Below, one piece after another: positions 383-55,285 of a stretch of 64,000 nucleotides of DNA. Under the pieces are notes generated by a model that had not been told where the DNA came from, did no database searches, and was given only the letters and a program-made list of their open reading frames with translations. The stretch's first letter is position 1. Each line of letters opens with the position of its first letter. A program made the translations under genes and the position numbers. The stretch lies in NCBI RefSeq assembly GCF_054482525.1, contig NZ_CM137006.1; one strand, 5' to 3'.

Positions 383-1114
383 CTAGCTGCGCTGGCGCAC
401 CGCTTCAAATAAGCAAATTCCGGTCGCAACCGAAACGTTCAGGGAAGAAACACTTCCTGCCATTGGGATGCTGATCAACTCATCGCAATGTTCACGGGTC
501 AGGCGACGCATACCTTCACCTTCCGCGCCCATCACCAGCGCCAGGCGTCCGGTCATTTTGCTCTGATAGAGTGTATGATCCGCCTCGCCTGCCGTACCGA
601 CGATCCAGATATTCTCTTCCTGCAACATACGCATGGTGCGCGCCAGATTAGTCACCCGAATCAGCGGAACGCTTTCTGCCGCGCCGCAGGCTACTTTTTT
701 CGCCGTGGCGTTGAGCTGTGCGGAGCGATCTTTCGGCACAATCACCGCATGAACTCCTGCGGCGTCCGCGCTACGCAGGCACGCGCCGAGGTTGTGCGGA
801 TCGGTTACACCGTCGAGGATCAGCAGGAACGGTTGATCGAGCGAAGCGATCAGATCCGGCAGATCGTTTTCCTGATACTGACGTCCTGGCTTCACGCGGG
901 CAATAATGCCCTGATGCACGGCACCTTCGCTTTTCTCGTCGAGATACTGACGGTTCGCCAACTGGATAACCACGCCCTGGGACTCAAGGGCGTGAATCAG
1001 CGGCAACAGACGTTTATCTTCACGGCCTTTTAAAATAAAGACTTCCTGAAAACGTTCAGGGGCGCGCTCCAGCAGGGCCTGCACTGCGTGGATGCCGTAA
1101 ATCATTTCGCTCAT
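383..1114 (-). CDS. rlmB: 23S rRNA (guanosine-2-prime-O)-methyltransferase RlmB
   Basis: 243-aa ORF, SpoU/TrmH-type methyltransferase sequence recognised as E. coli RlmB; sits directly downstream of rnr as in K-12. Confidence 0.93.
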
Positions 1115-1136: not shown

Positions 1137-1248
1137 TTGCCTGATGCACTACGTTTATCCGGCCTACATGCTCCCTGCAATATATTGAATTTGCGTGATT
1201 ATGTAGGCCGGATAAGGCGTTCACGCCGCATCCGGCATGAACAAAGCG
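1137..1248. repeat. REP/BIME element (two inverted REP units)
   Basis: Inverted copies of the REP motif (tgtaggccggataaggcgttcacgccgcatccggca and its partner ccggcctaca) in the rlmB-rnr intergenic region. Confidence 0.8.
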
Positions 1249-17732: not shown

Positions 17733-17808
<76 letters not shown>

Positions 17809-17843
17809 TTGGGTGGTCTGTGCTTTACAGCACTTTCAAATTT

Positions 17844-17919
<76 letters not shown>

Positions 17920-17954
17920 TTGGGTGGTCTGTGCTTTATAGCACTTTCAAATTT

Positions 17955-18030
<76 letters not shown>

Positions 18031-32110: not shown

Positions 32111-32644
32111 ATGCGCCTGCTCCCTCTCGTTGCCGCAGCGACAGCTGCATTTCTGGTCGTTGCCTGCAGTTCTCCTACGCCGCCCCGTGGCGTTACCGTA
32201 GTGAATAATTTCGATGCTAAACGCTATCTCGGTACCTGGTATGAGATTGCCCGTTTTGATCACCGCTTTGAACGTGGACTGGAAAAAGTCACCGCAACAT
32301 ACAGCCTGCGGGATGACGGCGGCCTGAATGTCATTAATAAAGGCTATAACCCTGACAGAGAAATGTGGCAACAGAGTGAAGGGAAAGCGTACTTTACCGG
32401 CGCACCAACTCGCGCTGCGCTGAAAGTGTCATTCTTTGGTCCTTTCTATGGCGGTTATAACGTTATTGCACTCGATCGGGAATACCGCCATGCGCTGGTT
32501 TGCGGCCCGGACCGCGACTACCTGTGGATACTCTCCCGCACGCCAACCATTTCTGACGAAGTGAAACAGGAGATGCTGGCAGTCGCGACCCGGGAAGGGT
32601 TTGATGTCAGTAAGTTTATTTGGGTACAACAGCCCGGTAGTTAG
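32111..32644 (+). CDS. blc: Outer-membrane lipocalin Blc
   Basis: 177-aa ORF; lipoprotein signal with lipobox LVVAC and lipocalin motif GTWYEIAR. Confidence 0.93.
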
Positions 32645-32958
32645 TGAGTGCTGAGTTTCAGACCAATAATCCCCAATACGATTAACGCCAGACTCGCCAG
32701 GCGCATCGGGTTAGCGGACTCGCCGAGCAGCACAATGCCGGTGATGGCCGCGCCGACTGCGCCAATACCCGTCCACACGGCATAAGCCGTCCCTACTGGT
32801 AACGATTTCATCGCCCAGGCAAGTAGCGCCATACTGACAATCATCGCCGTCACAGTAATAACACTTGGCGTCAAACGACTAAAGCCGTGGGTATATTTCA
32901 GGCCAACGGCCCATACCACTTCCAGCAGACCAGCAATAACTAAGATAATCCAGGACAT
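32641..32958 (-). CDS. sugE: SMR-family guanidinium exporter SugE (Gdx)
   Basis: ORF 32641..33021; conserved start [22 protein letters not shown] (105 aa); four-TM SMR protein. Confidence 0.92.
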
Positions 32959-32976
32959 ATCAGGCTCCGGAGAATT

Positions 32977-33019
32977 GGGGCCGTCCCCGGTGAAAAGAGG
33001 CGTTTGCAGGTCGTCCTGC
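32977..33019 (-). promoter_or_regulatory. Guanidine-II (mini-ykkC) riboswitch in the sugE leader
   Basis: On the minus strand: GCAGG-ACGA-CCTGC, a 17-nt linker, then GGGG-ACGG-CCCC; two short hairpins with ACGR tetraloops directly upstream of a GGAG Shine-Dalgarno and the sugE ATG. Confidence 0.8.
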
Positions 33020-33132
33020 AAAGCTGATGGTTGAACGGATATTTTGCCAGGTGGCAGGGGAATTTCAACTATTACCTTTGTGACTATCGCAAAAAAACAA
33101 ACGGCACGACATAACTGTCGTACCGTTATTGC

Positions 33133-33279
33133 TTACTGCTGCGCTTTCGTTGCTGCGCCAGAAATCGCGTTACCGCCATCAGAAATGTCTTCACCAACGC
33201 CACGCGTGGTGTTGCAGGCAGTTAATACTGTTGAAAGCACCAGAACAGAAAAGATCGCTGCAATTGTCTTCTTCACCAT
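33133..33279 (-). CDS. ecnB: Entericidin B lipoprotein (bacteriolytic toxin)
   Basis: 48-aa [51 protein letters not shown] translated by hand from the minus strand (not in the ORF track, below 60 aa); lipobox LTAC. Confidence 0.88.
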
Positions 33280-46888: not shown

Positions 46889-46964
46889 GCCCGGATAGCT
46901 CAGTCGGTAGAGCAGGGGATTGAAAATCCCCGTGTCCTTGGTTCGATTCCGAGTCCGGGCACCA
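46889..46964 (+). tRNA. pheU: tRNA-Phe (anticodon GAA)
   Basis: 76 nt GCCCGGATAGCTCAGTCGGTAGAGCAGGGGATTGAAAATCCCCGTGTCCTTGGTTCGATTCCGAGTCCGGGCACCA; copy name assumed from position after yjdC. Confidence 0.96.
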
Positions 46965-47161: not shown

Positions 47162-48427
47162 ATGGCACTGACTGACGCAAAAATCCGGGCTGCAAAGCCC
47201 ACTGACAAGGCTTATAAACTCACTGACGGGGCTGGCATGTTCCTGCTGGTACATCCTAATGGTTCCCGTTACTGGCGTCTCCGTTATCGTATTCTGGGTA
47301 AGGAGAAGACTCTGGCACTTGGTGTGTATCCAGAAGTTTCTCTCTCCGAAGCTCGTACAAAACGGGATGAGGCCCGAAAACTGATTTCGGAGGGGATTGA
47401 CCCTTGCGAACAGAAAAGAGCTAAAAAAGTAGTCCCTGATTTACAGCTCTCTTTTGAACATATTGCACGACGCTGGCATGCCAGTAATAAACAATGGGCA
47501 CAATCACACAGCGATAAAGTACTCAAAAGCCTCGAAACACACGTTTTCCCCTTTATCGGCAACCGGGATATCACAACACTCAATACCCCGGATCTGCTTA
47601 TCCCTGTTCGTGCTGCAGAAGCTAAACAAATTTATGAAATCGCCAGTCGTCTGCAGCAAAGAATATCTGCCGTAATGCGTTATGCCGTACAGTCTGGCAT
47701 CATCAGATATAATCCTGCTCTGGATATGGCTGGCGCATTGACTACGGTACAACGCCAGCATCGCCCCGCTCTTGATCTTTCACGTCTGCCTGAACTTCTG
47801 TCGCGTATTAACAGTTATAAAGGTCAGCCTGTCACCCGGCTTGCCGTTATGCTGAATTTACTGGTTTTTATTCGTTCCAGTGAACTCAGATACGCCCGCT
47901 GGTCTGAAATTGATATTGACAATGCCATGTGGACTATTCCAGCCGAACGCAAACCTCTGCCAGGGGTAAAATTCTCACACCGGGGCTCCAAGATGCGAAC
48001 ACCACATCTTGTGCCACTCAGCAAACAGGCTGTAGCCATACTGACAGAACTTCAGACATGGGCTGGTGAAAATGGTCTGATCTTTACGGGAGCACATGAC
48101 CCGCGTAAACCAATCAGTGAAAATACCGTAAATAAGGCCCTCAGAGTGATGGGGTATGACACAACCAAGGAAGTCTGTGGCCATGGATTCCGGGCGATGG
48201 CGTGCAGTGCATTGATTGAATCCGGCTTATGGTCAAGAGATGCGGTTGAACGTCAGATGAGTCATCAGGAGCGCAACGGAGTACGTGCCGCGTATATTCA
48301 TAAAGCAGAACATCTGGAAGAACGTCGGCTTATGCTGCAATGGTGGGCAGATTTTCTGGATGCAAACAGGGAGGAGTGTATCAGTCCGTTTGAATATGCA
48401 AAAGTTAACAATCCACTGAAAAGGTGA
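47162..48427 (+). CDS. int: P4-family tyrosine recombinase (phage-type integrase)
   Basis: 421-aa ORF MALTDAKIRAAKPTDKAYKLTDGAGMFLLVHPNGSRYWRLRYR (typical P4-Int N-terminus); C-terminal catalytic region with HxxR and the conserved tyrosine region. Confidence 0.92.
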   Translation: MALTDAKIRAAKPTDKAYKLTDGAGMFLLVHPNGSRYWRLRYRILGKEKTLALGVYPEVSLSEARTKRDEARKLISEGIDPCEQKRAKKVVPDLQLSFEHIARRWHASNKQWAQSHSDKVLKSLETHVFPFIGNRDITTLNTPDLLIPVRAAEAKQIYEIASRLQQRISAVMRYAVQSGIIRYNPALDMAGALTTVQRQHRPALDLSRLPELLSRINSYKGQPVTRLAVMLNLLVFIRSSELRYARWSEIDIDNAMWTIPAERKPLPGVKFSHRGSKMRTPHLVPLSKQAVAILTELQTWAGENGLIFTGAHDPRKPISENTVNKALRVMGYDTTKEVCGHGFRAMACSALIESGLWSRDAVERQMSHQERNGVRAAYIHKAEHLEERRLMLQWWADFLDANREECISPFEYAKVNNPLKR

Positions 48428-54954: not shown

Positions 54955-55269
<315 letters not shown>

Positions 55270-55285
55270 TTATGTTGTGGTGAGA

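Follow-up and report, generated by a model that had tools for sequence, protein, structure and literature searches.

A guanidine-II riboswitch in the sugE/gdx leader of Escherichia coli, and the pairings that may mask its ribosome-binding site

Two short hairpins stand just ahead of a small transporter gene, sugE (also gdx), in the 64-kb stretch of DNA analysed here (the window, meaning that stretch at its whole length), and they raise two questions: to what RNA family do they belong, and by what pairing might they control the ribosome-binding site that follows them? The first can be answered firmly. The element is almost certainly a translational ON switch, the guanidine-II (mini-ykkC) riboswitch that belongs to the E. 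coli sugE/gdx mRNA, and it is already known, having been characterised experimentally at this, its best-studied locus; the value of the present work lies in the correct annotation of a textbook riboswitch and holds little for discovery. The second question admits only a graded answer, in which the hairpin next to the ribosome-binding site is slightly preferred to the linker between the two hairpins as the masking partner in E. coli and its relatives, with the remaining probability lying with mixed or other mechanisms.

The identity of the downstream gene is secure. Its product, a 105-aa protein of the SMR family, matches the NCBIfam SugE equivalog (NF008512) over residues 1-104 with 193.5 bits against a cut-off of 126, and the EmrE and Qac models score far under their own cut-offs on the same product, so that the name sugE given to the gene in the preliminary description can be kept. 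NCBIfam models place blc, ecnB (33133..33279) and ecnA among its neighbours, and we take two further open reading frames nearby, recognised from their translations, to be efp and an ampC-like gene. Many E. coli chromosomes match the 211-nt leader region at 100% identity, and of 5426 complete E. coli genomes 5424 contain it, from which we conclude that the window comes from an E. coli chromosome. Under the leader match, the eight RefSeq records from E. coli that were listed show no features other than sugE and ecnB. The parts of the locus, in the order in which they would be transcribed, are these:

33127..33100, minus strand: terminator-like hairpin after ecnB, a 12-bp stem followed by a T-run (TGTTTTTTTG)
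33068..33041, minus strand: sigma-70-like promoter, by match to the consensus; -35 TTGAAA at 33068..33063, 16-nt spacer, TG-extended -10 CAAAAT at 33046..33041
33022..33003, minus strand: hairpin P1, UUUGCAGG-ACGA-CCUGCAAA, 8 bp, loop at 33014..33011
33002..32989, minus strand: linker, CGCCUCUUUUCACC, 14 nt and pyrimidine-rich, the published candidate anti-Shine-Dalgarno (anti-SD) segment
32988..32977, minus strand: hairpin P2, GGGG-ACGG-CCCC, 4 bp, loop at 32984..32981
32968..32965, minus strand: Shine-Dalgarno (SD) sequence GGAG, forming GGAGCC (32968..32963) with a conserved CC
32958..32641, minus strand: sugE/gdx coding sequence

Read on the minus strand from 33022 to 32956, the element is therefore UUUGCAGG-ACGA-CCUGCAAA CGCCUCUUUUCACC GGGG-ACGG-CCCC AAUUCUCC GGAG CCUGAU AUG, with each tetraloop closed by GG/CC, that is, by two G-C pairs. 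The end of P2 is separated by 8 nt from GGAG and by 18 nt from the sugE ATG (32958..32956), on the same strand, and GGAG in turn stands 6 nt from the ATG. Members of the class lie within about 33 nt of the SD sequence of the gene they regulate (PMC1950547), and P2, 8 nt from GGAG on the sense strand of sugE, falls well inside that distance. Two hairpins with ACGA and ACGG loops had been described from the letters just 5' of the sugE ribosome-binding site, and both are present there. Some details of that account depend on how P1 is delimited: its span of 32977-33019 is right at the P2 end, while 33019 marks only the inner 5 bp of P1 (GCAGG/CCUGC), the full stem beginning at 33022, and its 17-nt linker is correct for a 5-bp P1 and becomes 14 nt with the full 8 bp. 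Either length lies inside the published range of 7-40 nt for the guanidine-II linker (PMC5558903). The strand, which had been left unstated, is minus for both hairpins (33022..32977). We also observe that the first codons of the gene, AUG-UCC-UGG (window 32956..32950, minus strand), are conserved among sugE leaders of the Enterobacteriaceae type, in which the bases beside them vary; they are complementary to GGGAC in P2, as the SD block is to GGCCCC.

Membership of the family was assessed by scanning the whole window against 4227 Rfam families. Guanidine-II (RF01068), whose gathering score is 32, matches 32976..33022 on the minus strand with 50.4 bits, the alignment running through all 48 model positions (1-48); E is 5.2e-7 when the 64-kb window and 4227 families are counted and 6.5e-9 in a local search. 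It is the sole riboswitch match in the window, where guanidine-I (ykkC), -III and -IV give none. Folded in isolation, the 47-nt aptamer adopts exactly P1 and P2, at -17.4 kcal/mol (z = -2.78), and none of 200 shuffles does as well. The loop motif itself is not rare, as the octamer GGACGRCC occurs twice in the window against an expectation of 3.4, but these two copies, GGACGACC and GGACGGCC, share a strand at a distance of 30 nt, and both have a hairpin centred on them. The preliminary description had read the pair as mini-ykkC and had proposed an Rfam scan as a check: the match is well over the gathering score, it covers the full model, it precedes a SugE gene, and the same sequence has been published.

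Published studies use the E. coli sequence itself as the model guanidine-II aptamer (PMC9300104, PMC9094411, PMC13064478). Schamber et al. applied NMR and SAXS to a 49-nt aptamer from E. coli sugE and reported two extra G-C pairs upon guanidinium binding, with the ACGA loop of P1 as the stronger guanidinium site (PMC9300104). Fuks et al. described an intrastrand kissing state of a 47-mer by single-molecule FRET and cite a crystal structure of E. coli P1, 5NDI (PMC9094411). Kojima and Ito found that guanidinium raises Gdx-dependent Cs+ resistance, which they credit to induction of gdx by the riboswitch, and reported a 20-bp deletion, AGAATTGGGGCCGTCCCCGG (the ZX-1 deletion), in a strain that has constitutively high gdx mRNA; this was measured by RNA-seq with n = 1, at the level of mRNA and not of translation (PMC13064478). 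The deleted 20-mer is found verbatim and once in the window, at 32971..32990, where it spans P2 and the six nucleotides after it. In reviews E. coli is counted as a host of guanidine-II, and gdx on resistance plasmids is described as being under guanidine-II control (PMC12186494).

To see the element among its relatives, 100,044 species' genomes were scanned with the pattern GGACGACC-N12-40-GGGGACGGCCCC, giving at least 120 loci. The pattern held both loop cores and all of P2 constant, so that covariation within P2, or between the loop R and the SD sequence, was invisible to it; in P1 it fixed only GG/CC and left the other six positions free. A SugE-like open reading frame follows P2 by 13-31 nt in at least 83 of the 120 loci listed (87 with four that were missed by the regular expression). 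Positions 1-4 of the outer P1 stem are paired in 60-66 of 70 distinct homologues, by GC, CG, AU, UA and GU alike. Cells of the outer stem are paired in 79% of cases; shifting the partner strand by 1-2 nt leaves 31-39% paired, and permuting partners among the loci 44.5 +/- 2.4% (maximum 52.6%). Compensatory changes can be followed among enterics, E. coli having UUUGCA/UGCAAA, Enterobacter Bisph1 CGAACG/CGUUUG and Xenorhabdus UAUUCG/CGAAUA. As judged from these alignments, the P1 stem is covarying across the 70 distinct homologues.

The same search returned several loci in other gene contexts, recorded here as observations in their own right. About ten loci from Rhizobiales and other alpha-proteobacteria (L056 2520..3796, plus strand; L118 5310..4020, minus strand; and L003, L007, L037, L038, L052, L059, L090 and L097) have a guanidine-II match (32.5-42.3 bits, gathering score 32) directly before a stand-alone homologue of the ATP synthase A chain, which is about 249 aa long, does not belong to a full atp operon and in L056 matches PF00119 with 218.8 bits. 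A SugE/Gdx-like gene lies 3' of the A-chain homologue (3476..3796 in L056, 4337..4020 in L118), and in L118 the two genes each have their own guanidine-II riboswitch; full-text literature searches turned up no paper in which guanidine-II or mini-ykkC is connected to subunit a of ATP synthase. A Microbacterium locus (L044, 625..1238) has three guanidine riboswitch matches within some 600 nt: a guanidine-III on the minus strand (625..690, 43.2 bits) and two guanidine-II on the plus strand, of which 772..816 precedes a 94-aa open reading frame and 1194..1238 a gene of the Na+/Ca2+-exchanger family (PF01699). In a Pseudophaeobacter metagenome-assembled genome (MAG; L005) the two-hairpin pattern precedes a 150-aa 'chlorhexidine efflux' protein of the BTP/PACE family (PF05232, 146 bits) in place of SugE; its P1 extends only 2 bp past the core and it has no Rfam match at the gathering score, and this instance may not be genuine.

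For the hairpins to act on sugE they must be transcribed with it. The terminator-like hairpin after ecnB sets the upstream limit of the leader region, and between it and P1 lies the sigma-70-like promoter, which lies about 19 nt upstream of P1 and has a predicted start near 33034, about 12 nt before P1. Its -35 and -10 hexamers hold their position in most of 13 aligned enterobacterial orthologues, in which the other intergenic sequence has diverged. This conservation argues for a genuine promoter with a start before P1 and, because the conserved hexamers lie upstream of P1, for hairpins contained within the leader. The preliminary description had named hairpins outside the transcribed leader as the arrangement that would speak against its reading; the conserved promoter-like site at 33068..33041 disfavours that arrangement, in so far as the comparison of sequences can.

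In proposing how the element works, we can draw the aptamer architecture, its family and its association with the gene from the results above or from published work, and ligand binding and kissing from published work. Transcription would begin from the putative promoter about 19 nt upstream of P1, and the leader would form the two small hairpins, each with an ACGR tetraloop and two closing G-C pairs. One guanidinium ion would bind in each loop, and the loaded loops would kiss through their C and G bases, as has been published for this sequence. Without ligand, we infer, a competing pairing would mask the ribosome-binding site after P2; once guanidinium is bound, kissing between P1 and P2 would lock the hairpins in place, and the SD sequence and AUG would be released. 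Gdx could then be made and would carry guanidinium out of the cell in exchange for protons, consistent with the guanidinium/H+ antiport reported for E. coli Gdx (PMC13064478; reviewed in PMC12186494). In nearest-neighbour calculations, opening the region from SD to AUG costs 6.8 kcal/mol in the free leader, 5.85 with P1 and P2 locked, and 5.15 in the ZX-1 deletion, these modelled costs differing by only 1-1.7 kcal/mol among the three.

The choice of masking partner is where explanations diverge. The one that survives best, which we hold to be plausible while short of probable, has P2 itself as the mask. With no ligand P2 would open; its GGCCCC (loop Gs plus 3' strand) would then base-pair to GGAGCC, and its GGGAC (5' strand plus loop) to GUCCU, made up of the start codon's G, codon 2 and one further base; stabilisation of P2 by guanidine, together with kissing, would then free both the SD sequence and the AUG. 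This P2-SD helix is the minimum-free-energy structure of the leader from 33034 to 32930 and accounts for about 70% of its ensemble, in which P2 forms in only 0.13-0.14; it is longer than the P2 stem that it replaces, and on the SD side its pairs join GGC-CC to GG-GCC. It is dominant in 11 of 14 Enterobacteriaceae-type leaders, one soil MAG included. The SD block is kept in all 13 leaders of this type compared, as GGAGCC in 11 and GGAGCU in two, while its flanks vary, and the serine at codon 2 is always encoded by UCC in those compared. Of the 11 printed leaders of the Enterobacteriaceae type, 10 have a duplex between the 3' half of P2 and the SD region at -7.6 to -8.3 kcal/mol, where shuffles reach -3.9 to -5.8. 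In both E. asburiae and E. cloacae, P2 and the SD sequence are separated by a 10-nt insertion that forms a small hairpin of its own (AACUU/AAGUU), and this hairpin would hold P2 and the SD sequence adjacent. Finally, expression is constitutively high when P2 is lost in the ZX-1 deletion, which is difficult to reconcile with a linker anti-SD that depends on P2 for its neutralisation (PMC13064478).

Several results weigh against this. When the tail was shuffled with its dinucleotides preserved, 101 of 200 shuffles of the window sequence gave a P2 probability as low as or lower than that observed, and no orthologue fell under 5%; shuffled tails outcompete P2 as often as the real one, and the thermodynamic case for the P2-SD helix is therefore not significant. 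Over 83 homologues the P2:SD effect is small (-6.59 against -5.92, p = 0.027), and in the leaders of Kosakonia and Enterobacter Bisph1 P2 is predicted to stay folded. The evidence in favour thus consists of conservation without covariation, and of one mutant scored at the mRNA level with n = 1. The more specific proposition, that in E. coli and related Enterobacteriaceae the ribosome-binding site is masked by the P2 hairpin and not by the linker, so that the folding of P2 is the switch, is accordingly put forward tentatively, with somewhat less confidence than the pairing scheme itself.

The published drawing of the OFF state gives the role of mask to the linker, whose pyrimidine-rich sequence would act as an anti-SD and be pulled off the SD sequence by kissing. 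It was proposed in P. aeruginosa (PMC5558903) and has been drawn for E. coli (PMC9300104, PMC9094411), and there are striking matches between linker and SD in some homologues, such as CUCCAU:AUGGAG in L104 (-11.5 kcal/mol) and, by eye, CACCUCUC:GAGAGGUG in L100 and L101; linkers are also G-poor in the enteric leaders compared. At the present locus, however, the best linker:SD duplex has 4 bp and -3.5 kcal/mol, when the same linker reaches -7.4 with the SD regions of other loci. Across 83 homologues real pairs average -7.04 kcal/mol and mismatched pairs -7.09, the real pairs being no better than shuffles (p about 0.5), and as a general anti-SD the linker was consequently rejected, having no signal over mismatched partners or shuffles in that set. 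It would also predict that the P2 deletion of ZX-1 is locked OFF, whereas the reported effect is constitutive ON; high expression without P2 fits P2 as a repressor better than it fits a linker that must be neutralised by P2. On this balance we regard the linker as a somewhat less likely mask than P2 in E. coli. Our preference for P2 in E. coli and its relatives is a slight leaning, and the doubt over the masking partner leaves the guanidine-II identification untouched.

Control of transcription, in place of translational control or beside it, is a good deal less credible. Here P1 and the U-rich linker would form an intrinsic terminator or attenuator, and a consensus scan did flag P1 (33003..33022, minus strand) with CGCCTCTTTT (32993..33002, minus strand) as terminator-like; the ZX-1 effect, moreover, was seen in mRNA. 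Yet that scan gave 2 such sites against 1.4 expected by chance, and the U-run begins 6 nt past the P1 stem and is not conserved, as in Siccibacter (CGCAUCAUCAAAUC) and E. cloacae (CGCAUCACUCAUC). Published descriptions class the family as translational (PMC12186494, PMC5558903), and an increase in mRNA can come from translation protecting the transcript. With its U-tract both offset and unconserved, P1 followed by CGCCUCUUUU was rejected as a terminator and is probably incidental, and a transcriptional switch is very improbable.

Weakest of all, and negligible, is the notion that there is no regulatory RNA here: chance hairpins are rejected by the covariance-model E-value (5e-7) and the covariation of P1, and the 126-aa open reading frame from a TTG at 33021, which an ORF listing mechanically gives as 32641..33021 and which is open through both hairpins, was dropped as a longer SugE because linker and P2-to-ATG lengths vary by non-multiples of three (orthologue gaps of 19, 20 and 21 nt; spacers of 14, 15, 17, 18, 19, 27 and 28 nt), leaving the in-frame extension unconserved, and because the SugE model covers residues 1-104 counted from the ATG at 32958.

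Through the amount of Gdx that it sets, the riboswitch affects how well a cell tolerates guanidinium, certain quaternary ammonium compounds and caesium (PMC12186494, PMC13064478). If masking by P2 is correct, then ligand-driven folding of P2 would be the switch itself, which would explain why expression becomes constitutive when P2 is lost. On blaCMY-2 plasmids the switch moves together with sugE, intact in some cases and truncated in others.

Elsewhere in the window two regions deserve a record. A tRNA gene at 46889..46961 on the plus strand, by eye tRNA-Phe with a GAA anticodon, is followed after 200 nt by a P4-type tyrosine integrase (47162..48427, plus strand) with Arm-DNA-bind_3, Phage_int_M and Phage_integrase domains; past the integrase lie a TPR protein, a sulfatase/EptA-like protein, an outer-membrane beta-barrel protein and a match to the isrC sRNA (55151..55273, minus strand, 93.2 bits), and from its gene content the region looks like a genomic island integrated at pheU. 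Three identical tandem tRNA genes, 111 nt apart at 17736..18030 on the minus strand (69.1 bits each, anticodon GCC by eye), are probably the glyV-glyX-glyY cluster.

Among known systems the closest is the E. coli sugE/gdx model itself (Gdn49; PDB 5NDI), which is the same locus and shares the ACGA and ACGG loops, P1, linker, P2, GGAG and gdx. There is no difference between the two beyond delimitation, the papers describing a construct with a 23-nt P1, a 13-nt linker and a 13-nt P2 where we count a linker of 14 nt by base pairs. Next is the Citrobacter-type plasmid sugE of the blaCMY-2-blc-sugE arrangement, 77.7% identical over 430 nt, in which the riboswitch is kept (47.2 bits): it shares P1 and P2 exactly, agrees in the -35 and -10 hexamers and has the GGAGCC and ATGTCC blocks unaltered, but the linker is one nucleotide shorter with a C-to-U change and the spacer from P2 to the SD sequence is different. 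Plasmids of the commoner type (L001, 400..511) retain this intact switch, at 47.2 bits. An IncI-gamma/K1 plasmid (L002; NZ_CP012936.1, 390..452), taken as representative of partial BLAST matches that start at query position 60, has a sugE leader cut inside P1, which resumes at CCTGCAAACG and is without the promoter, the 5' strand of P1 and the ACGA loop; there is no Rfam riboswitch match there, and leaders cut in this way should not, to judge by what they have lost, be guanidine-inducible.

The guanidine-II riboswitch of P. aeruginosa (Reiss and Strobel 2017, PMC5558903) resembles the present one in its two ACGR hairpins, its SugE-like gene and its translational ON mode, which is that described for the class. 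There, however, the proposed partners of the SD sequence are the linker and the 5' side of P1, whereas the E. coli linker has little complementarity to the SD sequence. The remaining guanidine riboswitches, guanidine-I (ykkC), -III and -IV, share the ligand and have overlapping sets of genes, including Gdx exporters and guanidine carboxylase, but their folds are unrelated to that of guanidine-II, and classes I and IV act on transcription.
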